Below are positions 1,285-13,038 of a stretch of DNA of 14,947 bases, piece by piece. The stretch comes from a virus (lineage: Duplodnaviria > Heunggongvirae > Uroviricota > Caudoviricetes). A program made the translations under genes and the position numbers. Within the stretch, counting starts at the first letter, position 1; the number at the start of each line of letters is the position of its first letter. Under the pieces are notes generated by a model. The model was given only the letters and a program-made list of their open reading frames with translations. It ran no database searches and had not been told where the DNA came from. Where the stretch lies: the IMG/VR virus record IMGVR_UViG_2778261635_000005. One strand, written 5' to 3'.

Positions 1285-1530
1285 AATTCACAGGTGTTTT
1301 TTCCCATCCTGTGGTTTCCTTGGCGTTTTCTAGGTTTTTTCAGATAGTTGCATTTTTTAAAAAGCATCCTAAGTTCGATCTCAGTGTCTATCTGGGGCCT
1401 ATTTCTGTCCCATATATGCCCCAAAAAAAACTCCCCAACAGATAAGTAGTTTTTTCATGGATTTATGCGTAAAATCAAGAACGGCTGGAAATCATTCAAT
1501 ACTCACACTATCGAAAAATTTACCAGCCAA

Positions 1531-1570
1531 CCGCAGCACGTTCTTGCATAAGGCGTGTCTGCGGTTTTTC
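1531..1570 (+). terminator. Candidate intrinsic terminator (hairpin plus T-run)
   Basis: CCGCAGCACG ... CGTGTCTGCGG stem (about 10 bp with one bulge, 13-nt loop) followed by TTTTTC on the plus strand. No obvious upstream plus-strand gene, so function is uncertain. Confidence 0.3.
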
Positions 1571-1888
1571 AACTATTCAGATACATCACTCCCATCACAT
1601 TCATTCCTCCGCATCAAAGGCATATAGGCTATATCACCTTGATATTTTTATTTTTCAGATAAAAACTGTTATCTATGTATACTTTTAAACCCAATCCGTG
1701 TAGAGTCTCTGCATAAGATAGTTTGCAGTTGCCGCTTCAGCTTGCGCCATAAACCGCCTGATTTTTGCTGCCACCTGTTAGCATTCCTGTATACCTGAAA
1801 CGACAATGTTTATCTACGAACTTTAAGAACACCCAAGATAAAAATTGTCAACTATATCATATATAACACATTACTAATTCGAGGCTAT

Positions 1889-2002
1889 ATGAACAGCATA
1901 CTGATAATCACATCTCTCCTTATCATATTCAGCATTTTTAGTCATGCCCTAATAAAATTAGGGATTGGCATATCCAATAACCCAGACAAAACCGATGTAT
2001 AA
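1889..2002 (+). CDS. Candidate small membrane peptide (37 aa)
   Basis: ATG at 1889 preceded by GAGG (4-nt spacer); translation [37 protein letters not shown] has one predicted TM helix. Below the ORF-track length cutoff; AT-rich with several ATA codons, so could be spurious. Confidence 0.25.
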
Positions 2003-2070
2003 GTCAACATATCCTGAATCAGACATACAATATCGCAATGAAAATCAATAATATTTTAAGGAATATCTTC

Positions 2071-2304
2071 ATGAAATCAAAAGACACCCTAAAGTGGTTC
2101 CCTGCGCAGCTTCCTGAAGTAAGAATTATCCTAGGGGATGCTGTAGTGGAAGTAGCAAAACAGGGAAGACCTATCAATACCAGAACATTGCTTGATTACA
2201 TTGAAGGAAACATAAAGAAAAAATCATGGCTGGATAACAAAGAATTATTACAAACAGCGATATCAGTTCTTAAAGACAACCAAAATTTAAATGGTAAAAT
2301 GTAA
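2071..2304 (+). CDS. ydfK: YdfK/YnaE-family small protein (prophage cold-shock-associated gene)
   Basis: Track ORF 2038..2304; internal ATG at 2071 has an AAGGA RBS 8 nt upstream and gives the 77-aa product MKSKDTLKWFPAQLPEVRIILGDAVVEVAKQGRPINTR..., recognised from recall of K-12 YdfK. Confidence 0.8.
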   Translation: MKSKDTLKWFPAQLPEVRIILGDAVVEVAKQGRPINTRTLLDYIEGNIKKKSWLDNKELLQTAISVLKDNQNLNGKM

Positions 2305-2620
2305 TATAATAAACTTACTTTTTTATCATTTTTCCACTTTAACAACATTTTGCTCCACTTTTCCACGACCAAACAACTTGAAATCTGGTTAAAATAACAC
2401 GCAACACTATTCTTCTTCCTTGAGTCCGCCCGGAACTCGAAAAACAAACCGAGTTAAAGCCATTTTTCACAAAATCGATTTTGGGTCTCACCAAAATTAC
2501 GGGGTTGCATACGCATTCGTTTATTTTCGAACGTGTACATACAAATATGCACAAAAATAATCAAAATTATTTTCTGAGATGCATTATGATATGAACACCA
2601 ATTTCGTATAGAGTCTCACT

Positions 2621-3211
2621 ATGTCTCGAATTTTTGCTTACTGTCGGATATCAACGCTGGATCAGACCACCGAAAATCAACGCCGGGAAATCGAAAGTGC
2701 AGGTTTTAAAATCAAACCTCAGCAAATAATCGAAGAACACATTAGCGGCTCAGCAGCAACCAGTGAGCGTCCTGGTTTTAACCGGTTGCTTGCTCGCCTG
2801 AAATGTGGTGATCAATTGATTGTGACAAAACTGGATCGCCTTGGTTGTAATGCAATGGATATCAGGAAAACAGTGGAACAACTGACCGAAACAGGTATCA
2901 GAGTGCATTGCTTAGCATTGGGGGGCATTGACCTGACCAGTCCAACAGGAAAAATGATGATGCAAGTAATTTCAGCAGTCGCTGAATTTGAACGAGACCT
3001 TTTACTTGAACGCACTCATTCCGGGATAGTAAGAGCCCGGGGCGCAGGGAAACGTTTTGGTCGACCACCTGTGTTAAATGAAGAACAGAAACAGGTGGTA
3101 TTCGAACGAATTAAGTCAGGTGTAAGTATAAGTGCCATTGCCCGGGAATTCAAAACCTCGCGGCAAACCATTTTAAGAGCCAAAGCAAAACTTCAGACAC
3201 CTGACATATAA
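2621..3211 (+). CDS. pinQ: Serine recombinase (resolvase/invertase family), Pin-like
   Basis: 196-aa ORF; N-terminal catalytic region YCRISTLDQ (catalytic Ser), KLDRLG and GRPP motifs, C-terminal HTH ([18 protein letters not shown]); typical small serine recombinase architecture. Confidence 0.9.
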
Positions 3212-3216
3212 AAAAT

Positions 3217-3232
3217 AATCTCGGTGTGAGAT
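3217..3232. terminator. Weak hairpin between convergent pinQ and tfaQ (possible bidirectional terminator)
   Basis: ATCTC-GGTGT-GAGAT inverted repeat immediately after the pinQ stop, flanked by an A-run on the plus strand (a T-run on the minus strand). The stem is only 5 bp. Confidence 0.2.
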
Positions 3233-3308
3233 GCTTTACGTCTTCCAAGCCACCTTCCTTGCCGTAAATGGAAAGATACATCTAATTATAGAATTTATAT
3301 GTTTTACC

Positions 3309-3884
3309 CTACGGCAGTGCTGGCCATTCAATATCCTGTGCAGTTGACGTATCAACACGGTTCAGCAATACCCGATACTTTTTCCATGCTTCCAGCAACG
3401 AGATTTCTTCCTCCGTTGCAATTTCCAGATCTGCAGCATCCTGAAGCGGCGCAATATGCTCACTGGCTACCTGCATCAGGCTGTTTTTTGTTTCTTCCGC
3501 CTCCCGGATCCGGAACAGTTTTTCTGCTTCCGTATCCTTCACCCAGGCTGTGCCGTTCCACTTCTGATATTCCCCTCCCGGCGATAACCAGGTAACATTT
3601 TCCGGTAACGGACCGAGTTCAGAAATAAATAACGCGTCGCCGGAAGCCACGTCATAAACCGTTTTACCCCGATGATCTTCAACGAGATGCCACGATGCCT
3701 CATCACTGTTGAAAACAGCCACGAAGCCTGCCGGAATATCTGGCGGTGCAATATCGATACTGTTTGCTGGCAGACCTGTATGAGGCGGAATATATGCGTC
3801 ACCTTCACCAATAAATTCATTAGTTCCGGCCAGCAGATTATAAATTTTTATGGTCCGTGGTTGTTCACTCATTCTGAATGCCAT
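3309..3884 (-). CDS. tfaQ: Tail fibre assembly protein (lambda Tfa-like chaperone)
   Basis: 191-aa [37 protein letters not shown]... recognised as the lambdoid Tfa family; its start overlaps the stop of the upstream tail-fibre ORF (TAATG), as in stf-tfa pairs. Confidence 0.9.
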
Positions 3885-6064
3885 TATGCAAGCCTCACAA
3901 TATAGTTAAATGCGATGTTTTTGACGGTGTTTTCCGCGTTACCAGCAGCGTTAACGGTGATGGTATGTCCATGTGAACCAATCGCAACGGAGTGCGTATG
4001 AGCACCAATACCGACAGTATGTGCGTGTGCACCTGCGCTTGCAGCAGTACCCGATACAGAGTGCGTATGAGCGCCTGCAGAAGAAGTGTTAACACTGTAT
4101 TTAGAATAATCAGGTGATCCACTTCCCGGAGCACCACTGGAACCACCTGAAACAAATGTCATCGAATGGGTATGTGCACCGGCTGAAGCAGCCGTACCGC
4201 TAACACTATGGGTATGCGCACCAGTGTTATTCGTGGATTTAGTGCCGTAATCAAACGACGATGTGGTTTTCGTCCCCAAATCCGTACTGGATACGCTGGC
4301 GCTGTGGGTGTGTGATTTAATGCCGTCCTGTTCCTGAGACAATACGGCTCGATCACTGGCGGGCTTGCCCTTAATCGTCCAGCCACGCATATCAGGGATC
4401 ACGCCTGACGGATAAGCGGCTGCAAGTTTCGGGTAAGCAGATTTGTCAAAAGTCTGCCCCTGCATCAGGGCATAACCAGACGGAACGGTATCTGATGGCC
4501 ACGGGATTGGTGCACCGACTGGATAAAACTCTGCAGGAGGATGAGCCGAGGTGTAAAGCTGCGCCCACGGCGACCAGTTTGCGTCGGTCGTATCCCGTCG
4601 TGAACGAATAAATGCCGGAGCATGAGCACCGCTTGTACCACTCCAGCCGATGAGTAACTCACCTTCGCCAACGGCTGTCATCCCTTTCAGGTGAATGATA
4701 TTTCCATACGCTGTTGGATATCCGTTGTTATACACCTCGTATAACTCAAGACCTGTTGCCCCCTGCGTATTGTCTGTCAGCGCGGTTACCTGAACCACAA
4801 AACGGCGATGACGTCCCGCCTGCACATCCACTGTCGCCACAAGGAAATTAATGCCATCCGGCACACTGCGGGAAGGAACTGGCTCTGCCCGCTGCTCAAG
4901 CAGTTCACTTTTTCGTTGCTCCATGCTGGCACGAGGAAGATAAGGCAATCCCCAGTCGGTGTTGATAACCGCCCTGAGTGTTTCTTCGCTTCCTGTCGCT
5001 TCATACTCCTGTTCTGCAGTCAGTAATTTGTAAACCAGTTGCGCCCAGGTCTGATACGCAGCAGCTGGCCCTTCCATCCAGAAACTGGCGATACGGGAGC
5101 GGCGCGGTTCACCGGAAACGTTGCCGTTACGATCAATGACCTGACCTTCACGCAACCAGACTCCTGCACTATTGAGCTCACGCTTTTTCTCCGCAGTGAT
5201 AATGCCGCTGCAGTGCGGGCAAAGTAGATACGCCGCCTCACTGGCTTTAAAGGGATCCGGTTCATTACGGTAGCCGGTCATGGCATCCATGGCTGGCTGA
5301 AAATATTCACCGCAGTGCGGACATGACCAGTACCAGCGGCGGCGGTCACCACGATTGTAAAGGGAAAGAATACCAGTCGTCGGTGGCGCTTCATGAGGCG
5401 ACTTACGTCGCCATTTGCTGTCGCAGATGTCACGTCCCGGCGAGCTCTCCACCAGAGTCATCCCGGCGGACATAAATGTGGTGGTACGTTTTGAGGCCAG
5501 GGAGAAACCATCACCCTCGCTGTCGATATTCTCCGGAAAACGGTCGTAATCGGTTAAGGCGACAAACCGGTAATCCGACGACGACATAATGTTGACCGAG
5601 GGCCAACCAATTTTAAGGAACGAGCCATCCCTGAACGTCTTATCATGGACATTATTGTCGTTACGACGTGGACTCATTCTTTTCTTTACCGCCGCACTGC
5701 TTCTGAACGTTCTGTCGAGGCGCTTTTTAGAATGCTCGCGGGCCTTATCTTCGGTCATCTGCACAACGAGCATGTCCGAAGGATCGCAAACGATGGTATA
5801 GACAATCCATCCATCGATCAGACCAATGGTCTTCCCTGTTCGCGCAGGACCAACAAAAATCACCGCATCGTATTCACGCGATGCCAGGCAGTTCATGGGC
5901 TCAATGATGTAGGGTGTCAGTTCAGGATCCCATGGCACCGAGTTACCAGCCCCCTTGGGAACACGCATGAATTTTTTAACAGCCTCCGAAATCGGCATGC
6001 GACGTGGTGGGGAAAATCCTGCCGATATGTCCCTTCCCAAATTTCGGGCTGATGAAAAACCCAT
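3884..6064 (-). CDS. stfQ: Chimeric ORF: large terminase (gpA-like) N-terminal about 430 aa fused in frame to a side-tail-fibre C-terminal region
   Basis: 726-aa ORF with strong AGGAGG RBS. The N-terminal part has Walker A GPARTGKT (residues 72-79) and two CPHC motifs (248-251, 282-285) in the lambda gpA arrangement. The C-terminal part has a tail-collar-like block ([23 protein letters not shown]...DMRGW) and seven HxH motifs typical of fibre tips. The gene symbol refers to the tail-fibre portion; the reference annotation may split this ORF differently. Confidence 0.8.
3962..4315 (-). repeat. HxH-motif repeat region encoding the tail-fibre distal tip
   Basis: Seven His-x-His motifs (SHTHS, GAHTHS x4, GAHAHT, GSHGHT) in residues 584-701 of the fusion ORF; the 18-aa block [18 protein letters not shown] occurs twice with clearly different codons. 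Confidence 0.6.
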
Positions 6065-6072
6065 TATTCCTC

Positions 6073-6630
6073 CTAGAGACTCTCTCCTTCCTCATCAGGA
6101 ATTAATTCAGCAGCACAAGCCTCGTAGGATTTTTCCTGAAGAGTGTATCGCAGGTCATCAATTGCCTGCTGTACAACGCCGACGGCCTGAGGAGTCAGGG
6201 CGCAATCGCGTTCAAGAACATCCGGAATTGTCTCCAGAACCTGGACGACAGCCTTTCTCATGGACGAATAGACGATGACTACTTCATCAACGGGGATGAG
6301 TTTTCGCTGCTCCTTTTCCAGCTTGATCCTTTCATTTTCAGACTGGTACCAGTCCTTTCTCTCTTTCGGCTCCATACGGGATGGATCATGAACAGAGTCT
6401 GCTGCCTCATGCTTCACACTAAACAGGGCTGGCCCGACATGCTGCAGGGCGTAAACGGGGTTCCCCCTGACAGTCGCAGCCACAGGAGTGTTGGCCGCGA
6501 GAAGCCGTTTTTTTACTGTGTCCCGGTGAAGCCCAAAGGCCTCAGCGATTTTAAAAACACTCCAGTAATAAGCATCACCGATCCCGCTCACATTTGACAT
6601 AAGCAACTCCATCTGGCAGGTGAAAATCAT
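6073..6630 (-). CDS. nohA: Terminase small subunit (lambda Nu1-like DNA packaging protein)
   Basis: Track ORF of 185 aa with an N-terminal winged-HTH-like segment ([23 protein letters not shown]) and overall Nu1-like layout. The RBS-supported start is the internal ATG at 6600 (GGAG 6 nt upstream, product MSNVSG..., 175 aa). Lies between the cos site and the gpA-like ORF as in lambda. Confidence 0.8.
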
Positions 6631-6720
6631 GTTTATTTATATATTTCAATTAATTGTAAACTGGTCTAATGACAGGGAGAAAAAAATATTGTACAGGTAA
6701 AAAGAGAAATAACTTTTAAT

Positions 6721-6860
6721 TATCAATAAATTACCAAACATGCTGCCGCCGCCATGGAAATGCAAAAACTAGCCTTTTTCCGCGACGCTCCCGCCCCGTG
6801 GCAGGGGCCCCCACCGGGAGGACCCGACAGCCTGACAGCCTGACAGCCTGACAGCCGTGA
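6721..6860 (-). other. cos site region (cosN-like 12-mer at 6785-6796, IHF-consensus match at 6721-6733, repeat array on the cosQ side)
   Basis: Minus-strand sequence GGGTCCTCCCGGTGGGGGCCCCTGCCACG GGGCGGGAGCGT CGCGG aligns with the recalled lambda cos junction GGGTCCTTTCCGGTGATCCGACAGGTTACG GGGCGGCGACCT CGCGG. TATCAATAAATTA matches the IHF consensus WATCAANNNNTTR. The position, about 185 bp upstream of the Nu1-like gene, matches lambda. Confidence 0.55.
6825..6856. repeat. 8-bp tandem repeat, CGACAGCC followed by three perfect TGACAGCC units
   Basis: Read directly from the sequence; lies immediately on the cosQ side of the cosN-like sequence. Confidence 0.9.
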
Positions 6861-6992
6861 CGAGCATCTGATACAGCGCTTTACATAATGGCATAGGAAT
6901 AATTCAGAAGGACATCACAGCATGCCCACACAAATTAGTGTGAGTGTCCTGTTTCTTCCTACGCACAGGACTGACGAGCATGAGGGGAAAAT

Positions 6993-7160
6993 ATGCGAAC
7001 CATAAATGCCTCATCTTCAGCAATGCAGCCGGCATCCGAACAGGACGATATTGTAAATTCACCTAATTACGAGGACATTGCAGTAGTTGAATTGCAGCTC
7101 TGTATTAGCCTGACAGTGACAGAATGCGATATTGACTCTGTCACAGGTGAAATAGTTTGA
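6993..7160 (+). CDS. Candidate small acidic protein (55 aa)
   Basis: ATG at 6993 with GAGGGG RBS 5 nt upstream; translation MRTINASSSAMQPASEQDDIVNSPNYEDIAVVELQLCISLTVTECDIDSVTGEIV. Below the track cutoff; no recognised family. Confidence 0.3.
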   Translation: MRTINASSSAMQPASEQDDIVNSPNYEDIAVVELQLCISLTVTECDIDSVTGEIV

Positions 7161-8889: not shown

Positions 8890-9096
8890 CTTCATTTTCA
8901 CTTTTTTAAATCCAACGACAGACGGCTGGCATTTAAGTATTGTGAAATATTATCAAATGTAATCATCATTGATTTACAAAAGATACATTTTGCCCCGAAA
9001 GGATTCATGTCAGAAACATCAAAAGATGATGTTCTATACTGGGAACCATGACAACACGGGCATCTAAAGTGAATATGGTTTGTAATATTGTCTACC

Positions 9097-9309
9097 TCAA
9101 AGCGCCACTACATGAACAGCGGCAGGACCTTTAGGTCCGTTCTCAATACCAAATTCAACTTCCTGATTCTCAGTTAATGTTTTGAAATCGTTGCTCTGAA
9201 TTGCTGAGAAATGGACAAACACATCTTTGCTGCCATCTTTCGGCGTGATGAAACCAAAACCTTTTTCAGGGTTAAACCATTTCACTAAACCAGTCATTTT
9301 GTTAGACAT
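9097..9309 (-). CDS. cspI: Cold shock protein, CspA family
   Basis: 70-aa [41 protein letters not shown]... with RNP1 (KGFGFI) and RNP2 (VFVHF) motifs; AAGG RBS 7 nt upstream. Confidence 0.95.
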
Positions 9310-9418
9310 AATTATTACCTTTTGAAGAAATTAGCCCTTGGGCAGAATGGTCCGAAAAAAAATATCAGAGAGAAAAACCAACAAGGAAATCTCAAGAGGT
9401 ACAAATAATAAAATTATA
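9310..9418 (-). promoter_or_regulatory. cspI promoter and 5' UTR (candidate -10 TATAAT at 9418-9413)
   Basis: Perfect TATAAT about 100 nt upstream of the cspI ATG on the minus strand; CspA-family genes typically have long 5' UTRs. No clear -35. Confidence 0.35.
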
Positions 9419-9672
9419 ACAATGACTGCTTCAGATAAATTTGTAACAAACCAGAACACCATTAACGCATGATTAACCACCCATAGCAAGGATTACTTTT
9501 GTAAAGAAAAACACAGCAATGAAAGAATAGCTTTATTTATTAATAATAACGTGTCATTCTGATTAAGACCTTTTATCTTACCCTTAAGATTTCAGGAATT
9601 TTGGCTCATGGAAGAGTCCTTTTTATTTAAATTTTACATTCCGCGATGTAAATGTTCCGATTTAATATTACC

Positions 9673-11699: not shown

Positions 11700-11981
11700 T
11701 GAGATTGTGGTGCTTTTTGTGGGAGTCATCCACTTACGCACTTTGTTTTGCCATGCCAGCAGTTAGCTTCTGCTGTAAAACTATTCATGCAGCAAACCTG
11801 CACTTCACCACAATGGTTAGCATACTTTTCCTGATTAAGATTTTGCCAAATATGCTGGCCATTGTTTCATGTATTGGACCTCCTTAATTTTTATTAAAGA
11901 AATCCAATATTCACTACTCTGTCCGTATCTCTACTCAGGCATCAGCCTTCTTCGTTATCGTATACAGACGAGCGATGAATT

Positions 11982-12197
11982 TTAATCAGTAATGATGACA
12001 TTTGCTGCTGCAGGACCTTTAGCACCACTCTCTATAGAGAAGGTAACCTTTTGACCTTCAAATAAGGTTCGATAATTATCATTCTGAATCGCAGAAAAAT
12101 GCACAAACACATCTTTACTACCATCAACAGGAGAAATAAAGCCGAAACCTTTATCAGCGTTAAACCATTTTACTAAACCAGTCATTTTATTTGACAT
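11982..12197 (-). CDS. cspB: Cold shock protein, CspA family
   Basis: 71-aa [41 protein letters not shown]... with RNP motifs; AAGGA RBS 7 nt upstream. Confidence 0.95.
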
Positions 12198-12360
12198 TCT
12201 ACATTCCTTAACTTGAGCCTTTCGGCATAAATGGTTTGCATAACAGAAACGACTTCGTACTTAATTGGAGAGACTCAAAGAAGGAATAAGTGAATAACAC
12301 CTGAAATGAGAACTGCTTTAGTAAACTACTTCGTATATCGTCTGTTCTTCAAACCGACGC
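12198..12360 (-). promoter_or_regulatory. cspB promoter and long 5' UTR (candidate -10 TTAATG near 12359-12354)
   Basis: About 150-nt leader between a cspA-like -10 (TTAATG, preceded by TTGCTT at about 18 bp) and the ATG; consistent with the long 5' UTRs of cold-inducible csp genes. Confidence 0.35.
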
Positions 12361-12854: not shown

Positions 12855-13002
12855 TAAGCAGACTCATTGTGTTTAGGGACATTGTACTGGAAGAAAACAT
12901 TTTAAACATCAGGCAAATAACCAAGTCACCAGCTAAATAATAAGTTAACAGACATGAGTCCCGGGATGAGATTCAACATTACCATTGCCCCATTTAAAGC
13001 AC

Positions 13003-13038
13003 AAAACCCGCTCATCAGCGGGTTTTCTACTTTTTCTT
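13003..13038 (+). terminator. Intrinsic terminator (plus strand); the same hairpin may act as an early terminator for the minus-strand late promoter
   Basis: AAAACCCGC-TCATCA-GCGGGTTTT stem followed by CTACTTTTTCTT on the plus strand. Confidence 0.5.

Follow-up and report, generated by a model that had tools for sequence, protein, structure and literature searches.

The gene pinQ lies at positions 2621-3211 (+ strand) of a 14,947-nt stretch of DNA (IMG/VR record IMGVR_UViG_2778261635_000005; hereafter the window), which covers the right end of an Escherichia cryptic prophage, lambdoid and of the Qin type. Its open reading frame (ORF) of 196 amino acids encodes a small serine recombinase, PinQ, which adjoins tail fiber genes and has historically borne the name Pin. 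Our analyses indicate that pinQ is probably a Tn3-family tnpR (resolvase) gene, stranded in an 834-bp transposon relic that has no transposase, and an orphan with no substrate in cis. The element (2421-3254) is an old and fixed relic that lacks tnpA and has the order left terminal inverted repeat (IR), res, tnpR (that is, pinQ), right IR.

The gene itself is known and its orphan status has been published; it is the family assignment that changes, and the explanation, a stranded transposon resolvase, is an ordinary one in kind. In the literature on PinQ and PinR we found nothing that links these proteins to a Tn3-family origin, to relics of IRs, a target duplication or res, or to an Arg-to-Cys change at a catalytic position. 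What is added here is the re-assignment, a map of the relic, a predicted DNA target for PinQ (TGTCCGAAA-type dyads) and a biochemical objection to a recent mechanistic claim. The textbook K-12 pair PinQ and PinR would move from "Pin invertases" to relics of Tn3-family res/resolvase modules, which fully explains why no invertible segment is present beside pinQ.

Relation of pinQ to Tn3-family transposons

By its domains PinQ is a small serine recombinase, with an N-terminal resolvase domain (Pfam Resolvase, PF00239, E 2.5e-36) that includes the nucleophilic Ser11 and a C-terminal helix-turn-helix (HTH) domain (HTH_7, PF02796, E 3.8e-11), and it belongs to the clade formed by the TnpRs of Tn3-family transposons. 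When plasmids were searched with PinQ by tblastn, 250 records had matches at 80-90% identity, and all relatives of greater than 57% identity proved to be either phage-borne PinQ alleles or transposon TnpRs. On the E. coli plasmid pSJ7-2 (NZ_CP051658.1), for example, a TnpR 85% identical to PinQ is situated 160 bp from a divergent Tn3-family transposase of 994 amino acids (NF033527, 1202 bits), within a 3,815-bp element that has perfect 38-bp IRs (GGGGTCCGCTTGGAAAACGGAAAATATCCCACGCTAAG) and a GTATA target duplication. The same layout of tnpA, 160-bp spacer and tnpR is repeated for homologs of 77-80% identity in Shewanella, on Klebsiella-type plasmids and on metagenomic contigs (the Shewanella protein is 77% and those of loci P0101 and P0084 are 79-80% identical to PinQ, with the 994-amino-acid tnpA product encoded 160 bp away). 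The 38-bp IR (GGGG...ACGnTAAG) is conserved across genera, and some of the Klebsiella and Shewanella elements carry cargo genes.

Seven of these relatives, representing six genera, have a common res within the 125 bp upstream of tnpR, whose three subsites are composed of TGTCCGAAA-type half-sites: site I is 26 bp long (TGTCCGAAACCG-nn-CGGTTTCGGACA) with a non-palindromic center, site II is a 32-bp dyad and site III abuts the start codon. This arrangement is similar to that of the Tn3 and gamma-delta systems, which also have half-sites of the TGTC.../CGTTCGAAA type in a three-subsite res that lies upstream of tnpR and doubles as the promoter region. PinQ further shares with the Tn3 and gamma-delta resolvases its domain organization and all but one of the catalytic residues; it differs from them in overall sequence (about 33-35% identity) and in having Cys at the equivalent of R71. 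Site I differs in length as well, at 26 bp here and 28 bp in Tn3 res.

The window retains relics of the parts of such an element, apart from the transposase gene. The left IR relic (2421-2458, + strand) matches GGGGTCCGCTTGGAAAACGGAAAATATCCCACGCTAAG at 24 of 38 positions without gaps (local score 30.0, versus a maximum of 25.5 in shuffled sequence), and the right IR relic (3220-3254, - strand) at 26 of 36 positions with one gap (score 34.5, same shuffled maximum); the latter begins 9 nt past the pinQ stop codon, as in the live transposon. When an ungapped IR scan was run over both strands (~29,800 positions), the background did not exceed 21/38 and there were only two outliers, 25/38 at 3220-3257 (-) and 24/38 at 2421-2458 (+), which flank pinQ in inverted orientation. 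Directly outside position 1 of the left relic is the pentamer TTCCT (2416-2420), and an identical TTCCT (3255-3259), kept in other phage-borne copies, stands directly outside the tip of the right relic. This pair is a putative target-site duplication; a 5-bp duplication is typical of Tn3-family insertion, and the chance expectation is about 1/1000. Alignment with the transposon gives about 82% identity from about 2541 to 3250; homology is weak from about 2500, clear from about 2528, and stops precisely where the right IR does, at its outer tip (3254).

Between the left IR relic and pinQ are the positional homologs of the three res subsites. The decayed site I (2508-2533; CATACGCATTCG-TT-TATTTTCGAACG) corresponds to the 26-bp site I of the relatives and would be the former crossover site; the decayed site II (2548-2579) is a 32-bp dyad with the same position and spacing as theirs; and the site III relic (2588-2610), next to the pinQ start, is the best preserved and aligns to site III of the transposon. 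The pinQ module resembles the res/TnpR modules of its Tn3-family relatives, such as that of pSJ7-2, in protein sequence (77-85% identity), in an unchanged recognition helix, in the location of res with its sites I, II and III, in the distance from stop codon to IR and in its 5-bp flanking duplication. It is unlike the live elements in having no transposase gene, in its degenerate IRs (24-25/38), in its decayed crossover subsite, in the Cys at the position of catalytic Arg71, and in being a fixed part of a phage module, with which it is passed on vertically.

All 66 viral contigs have the same element with the same junctions (the flanks on the side of each IR), and the left junction reads TTCCT|TGAGTCCGCC or TTCCT|CGAGTCCGCC in 58 of them; the relatives L033, L034 and L035 retain the GGGG tip of the IR. 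On this reading the relic would have inserted between ydfK and the tail fiber assembly gene of an ancestral lambdoid phage and would have been inherited with that phage module ever since. Searches for an empty site, in which the left flank is joined directly to the right one, were negative across 5,426 E. coli genomes, 50,697 phage records, IMG/VR and the JGI metagenomes; the occupied junction, as a control, was present in at least 120 viral contigs. It is thus only from the IR relics and the duplication that we infer the insertion.

Several other loci bear on the history of this gene family. In a Budvicia aquatica sequence (L024, about 5880-6000) an IR of the same 38-bp family (GGGGTCCGCTTGGAAAGCGGAAAATATCCTACGCTAAG) lies directly upstream of a 5'-truncated pinQ-like gene, and looks like a related transposon inserted into a res/tnpR region. 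Erwinia oleae (L019, 1280-2649) has a head-to-head pair of pinQ-like genes whose products share 72% and 78% identity with PinQ; the 204-bp spacer between the two contains res-like half-sites. The ydfK-pinQ-tfaQ segments in metagenome-assembled genomes attributed to Alistipes, Draconibacterium and Caldithrix (L007, L010 and L011), bins that belong to unrelated phyla, are 99-100% identical and most likely represent E. coli contamination or mis-binning.

There is also a problem of nomenclature: annotation pipelines spread the label "pinR / DNA invertase from prophage Rac" onto the ordinary transposon resolvases of resistance plasmids. A resolvase linked to Tn5403 in a Klebsiella plasmid context was labeled "pinR" in a 2026 publication (PMC13253593), which is consistent with the family relationship and is a lead only.

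Catalytic state of PinQ and its present role

To score the res relic, a half-site matrix was built from the subsites of the relatives, on which functional half-sites score 10.4-15.6 bits and complete site I dyads 28.1-28.6 bits. In the window, the two halves of site I have values of -1.4 (I-L) and 8.2 bits (I-R), a sum of 6.8 compared to about 28 in live copies, and those of site II have values of 4.3 (II-L) and 3.2 bits (II-R). Four of the five scorable half-sites are consequently below the functional range and the dyad symmetry of sites I and II is mostly lost. The exception is site III-R (TATACGAAA), which at 12.4 bits is within the functional range and is the second best half-site of the whole window. 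PinQ and the transposon TnpRs have one and the same recognition helix, (S/T)RQTILR, so the changes in the sites look like decay rather than co-evolution. A search with the family crossover matrix for a partner site elsewhere produced no candidate in the window, in the complete genome of phage mEp460 or in 8 kb of e14; the best site-I-like dyad in the mEp460 genome scored 9.8 bits, and the best dyad of any spacing in the window 11.7 bits.

The protein carries a change of its own. Of the catalytic set of Tn3 resolvase (Y6, R8, S10, D36, R68 and R71), PinQ has kept the equivalents Y7, R9, S11 and R73, it has the Glu at position 39 that all of its clade has, and R71 is replaced by Cys76 (codon TGT, 2846-2848), so that the PinQ motif KLDRLGC aligns with KLDRLGR of gamma-delta resolvase, Gin, PinE and the transposon TnpR. 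Arg occupies this position in 115 of 121 aligned sequences (PinQ and 120 cluster representatives). Cys is the residue of the PinQ and PinR clusters, to which >3,500 sequences belong, and of another phage-borne lineage, of 85% identity; Cys76 is also found in K-12 PinQ and in all 66 viral contigs. The change is common to every PinQ/PinR allele examined and bears on the question whether PinQ is the enzyme of e14 inversion or only a modulator. In Tn3 resolvase, the substitutions R71A and R71K abolished resolution in vivo and lowered cleavage about 1000-fold, and DNA binding was kept (Olorunniji and Stark, PMC2794168).

The sequence of pinQ is not drifting: the ORF is intact in 66/66 viral contigs, which encode 15 protein variants, and the ratio of nonsynonymous to synonymous substitution is 0.15 against the transposon copy and 0.38 between the two Cys76 phage lineages. 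Two prophage copies, L025 (Shigella flexneri) and L026 (E. coli ECGI0523), have a frameshifted or prematurely stopped pin gene, and one mosaic allele has the substitution D72A; these signs point to a relaxed constraint on catalysis. In both of these prophages (6001-6590) the ydfK-pin-tfa module has diverged, with an upstream res relic that is almost the same as the window's. Two phage alleles have Arg76: L034 (5001-5591) is 96% identical to the TnpR of the plasmid transposon yet has the PinQ C-terminus, and L035 (38-628), the D72A allele, has a transposon-like N-half and a PinQ-like C-half. We considered these as less decayed intermediates and rejected that interpretation, as they are mosaics from recombination with a transposon-borne tnpR. 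They imply that the prophage relic still undergoes gene conversion with transposon copies.

A transposon origin is compatible with a PinQ that is nevertheless an active invertase in trans, recombining the pix sites of e14 directly, creating StfE2 and blocking phage T2. PinQ has recently been credited with just such an inversion, of the 1,797-bp P segment of e14, as a defense against T2 (Kirigo et al., NAR 2025, PMC12529663). As presented in the text of that report, the P segment was inverted in 88% of cases when PinQ was overproduced versus about 30% in the wild type, T2 survivors have the inversion, the effect is lost on deletion of stfP, stfE or e14, and deletion of pinQ reduces both inversion and survival; PinQ did not invert the DNA adjoining its own gene, and BLAST revealed no inversions in Qin or rac (PMC12529663). 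This evidence is genetic and at the level of populations. Term searches of the main text of the same report found mention of neither an in vitro assay nor a catalytic-serine mutant, its results section describes no expression of PinQ in a pinE-null strain, and a pinE mutant was locked in one orientation despite intact pinQ and pinR (PMC12529663). K-12 PinQ, moreover, has Cys at the R71 position, at which Tn3 mutants are devoid of in vivo resolution (PMC2794168). The recognition helix of PinQ (SRQTILR) is of the transposon TnpR type, while that of PinE is GVSTLYK. On the family matrix, where real half-sites reach 10.4-15.6 bits, the four of pix have scores of 3.2, 3.2, -1.3 and -3.5, and the top-scoring dyad of the 8 kb of e14 (7.4 bits) is located away from pix. 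A resemblance of TGTCCGAAACC to the pix half-site TCTCCCAAACC was dropped as a candidate, given its 3.2 bits on that matrix. Direct catalysis by PinQ at pix is doubtful because of Cys76, the TnpR-type helix, the poor match of pix (at most 3.2 bits) and the locked pinE mutant, and we regard this alternative as possible but not probable.

We consider it very unlikely that the upstream res (2508-2610) is still functional, having co-evolved with PinQ as a phage-encoded resolution system for phage or prophage multimers. Such a role would account for the conservation of the region among all phage-borne copies, for the recognizable state of site III and one half of site I, and for the purifying selection on the ORF. 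It is difficult to reconcile with a recognition helix that has not changed while four of the five scorable half-sites have dropped below the functional range, with sites I and II that are mostly devoid of dyad symmetry, or with Cys at the equivalent of catalytic Arg71. In addition, lambdoid phages package from concatemers and are not known to need dimer resolution.

The reading of pinQ as the resolvase gene of a transposon relic has its own difficulties. A tblastn of 1200-2700 at E<=50 returned only noise, with no remnant of tnpA; the search for an empty site was negative; and both IR relics are degenerate, at 24-25 of 38 positions. In a sequence search of the PDB with PinQ, Gin (105 bits) ranked above gamma-delta resolvase (83 bits). 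The purifying selection on the ORF shows that the protein does something. Lastly, the increase in P inversion on PinQ overproduction argues for a recombination-related activity despite Cys76 (PMC12529663).

The live relatives recombine at the three-subsite res just upstream of tnpR, and PinQ, whose own res has decayed, the crossover subsite most of all, would carry out no recombination in cis at its own locus. PinQ would persist as a non-catalytic, site-specific DNA-binding protein, a proposal that we put close to an even call, leaning slightly against it. Tn3 and gamma-delta TnpR classically auto-repress beside their start codon, and PinQ would probably auto-regulate at the preserved site III beside its own. 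Action in trans, be it on related res sites or on another recombinase system, is conceivable as well. A broader version, that PinQ and PinR are domesticated and catalytically crippled transposon resolvases selected in lambdoid phages and their cryptic descendants as DNA-binding regulators, is more tentative and in our judgment rather unlikely. If it were true, PinQ might modulate PinE-driven P inversion without catalysis or, where an incoming Tn3-family transposon has a cognate res, might repress it or interfere with it, and "recombinase-activated phage defence" would work through PinE with PinQ as its non-catalytic partner.

The missing invertible segment and the Din family

Gin of Mu, Cin of P1, Hin of Salmonella and PinE of e14 belong to the Din family of invertases, whose members are about 60-70% identical to one another and interchangeable. 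Din systems have a pair of inverted 26-bp crossover sites around a segment with alternative fiber and tfa sets, and a Fis-bound recombinational enhancer within the 5' part of the coding region, the Fis consensus being too degenerate to be informative on sequence alone. A sequence-only reading of the window had taken the recombinase gene to be of this type and had noted that it is convergent with a single tfa gene and accompanied by neither an invertible segment nor gix/hix-type sites. These observations were borne out. The ORF at 2621-3211 (+) converges at its 3' end with tfaQ on the opposite strand, and ydfK lies upstream of it on the same strand. The gix consensus TTATCNAAAACCNNGGTTTNNGATAA has no match in the whole window with up to three mismatches, and when all 26-bp windows were scored against the Din half-site as 12-2-12 candidates the best reached 13/20, compared to 13-15 in shuffled sequences. 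The systematic search for generic 12-2-12 palindromes likewise gave a result at the level of chance, with nine dyads at 9/12 and two at 10/12 in the window (6.3 and 1.0 in shuffles). From 1285 to 7000 no segment is enclosed by a long and well-matched inverted repeat, the best pair being 25 nt long with 72% complementarity. The window thus truly lacks an invertible segment and gix/hix-type sites. One of the dyads at 10/12 (CAAAACCCGCTCATCAGCGGGTTTTC, 13002-13027) resembles the hairpin of an intrinsic terminator and has nothing to do with recombination.

The explanations that had been offered for this absence fared differently. That the recombinase is an orphan holds in the sense that it has no partner sites in cis; that a segment was lost or rearranged does not, because an identical gene with the same layout is present in intact phages. 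PinQ proteins 99-100% identical to that of the window are encoded by the functional lambdoid phages mEp460, Tritos, 2H10, HannyBb and PhiR63_1. The genes of mEp460 and Tritos run from J and (lom) to stf and tfa, which converge with pinQ, and on to ydfK, attP and int/xis; each phage has one fiber and assembly set only, that of Tritos being a different module. Since functional phages have this single-set layout, the missing segment is a trait of the whole phage module and not a product of decay in Qin. Where a lost fiber segment had been envisaged, the window instead holds IR relics, a 5-bp duplication and a decayed res around pinQ. The other suggestion, that the enzyme uses different sites, agrees with the finding that its family recombines at TGTCCGAAA-type res dyads rather than at gix.

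PinQ does have features in common with the Din invertases: it too is a small serine recombinase that ends in an HTH domain, its gene is beside phage tail fiber genes, and the crossover site of its family, like Din sites, has the 12-2-12 format (26 bp) with an A-tract and a non-palindromic central dinucleotide. There are also differences. PinQ is only 38% identical to PinE and its close relatives (77-85%) are TnpR resolvases; it is the 3' end of pinQ, not the 5' end, that faces the fiber genes; the locus has one fiber set and no gix-like sites; and in the relatives the res includes the accessory subsites II and III and a transposase gene lies nearby, which is the architecture of a resolvase system. 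Among 120 cluster representatives, 26 genome loci and 526 phage records, no relative of greater than 60% identity was found beside an invertible stf/tfa segment with gix-like sites. It is extremely unlikely that PinQ is a Din-family tail fiber invertase that lost its segment and crossover sites through deletion or rearrangement of the cryptic prophage: the adjoining fiber genes, the historical name and the rank of Gin as the top match of solved structure favor it, whereas the low identity to PinE, the equal layout without a second fiber set in functional phages, the transposon TnpRs with res sites as nearest relatives, the IR relics and target duplication that enclose pinQ, and the lack of a gix-like site all oppose it. 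As PinQ is not an invertase of the Din type, no adjacent invertible segment or gix site is to be expected.

Neighboring genes and other features of the window

To the left of the relic are a truncated ydfJ (1-1284, -), ynfT (about 1889-2002, +) and ydfK (2071-2304, +), the last a phage b-region gene identified by tblastn and the annotation of homologous loci. To its right is the single tail fiber assembly gene, tfaQ (3309-3884, -; Pfam Caudo_TAP, E 9.8e-43, and annotation), followed by a fusion ORF (3884-6064, -) and by a DUF1441 gene (6073-6630, -) that is similar to a small terminase gene. The product of the fusion ORF has 726 amino acids and consists of the N-terminal 430 amino acids of a terminase large subunit (the GpA ATPase and the start of the nuclease domain) joined to a tail fiber C-terminus (Collar and fiber repeat); all of the head and tail genes between the two halves were removed by a deletion. 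This arrangement is covered to at least 80% in just 34 of 5,426 E. coli genomes, the best match being 96.9%, in three pieces.

Rfam searches found no RNA family in the interval 2305-2620, upstream of pinQ. Elsewhere there is a full-length match to IS009 (RF02111; 221 bits, gathering score 117) at 3343-3541 (-), inside the 3' half of tfaQ and on the same strand. Two 5' untranslated regions of the cspA thermoregulator type (RF01766) are present at 9070-9455 (-) and 11966-12358 (-), with scores of 112.8 and 158.8 bits, respectively, and both are upstream of prophage cold-shock genes.

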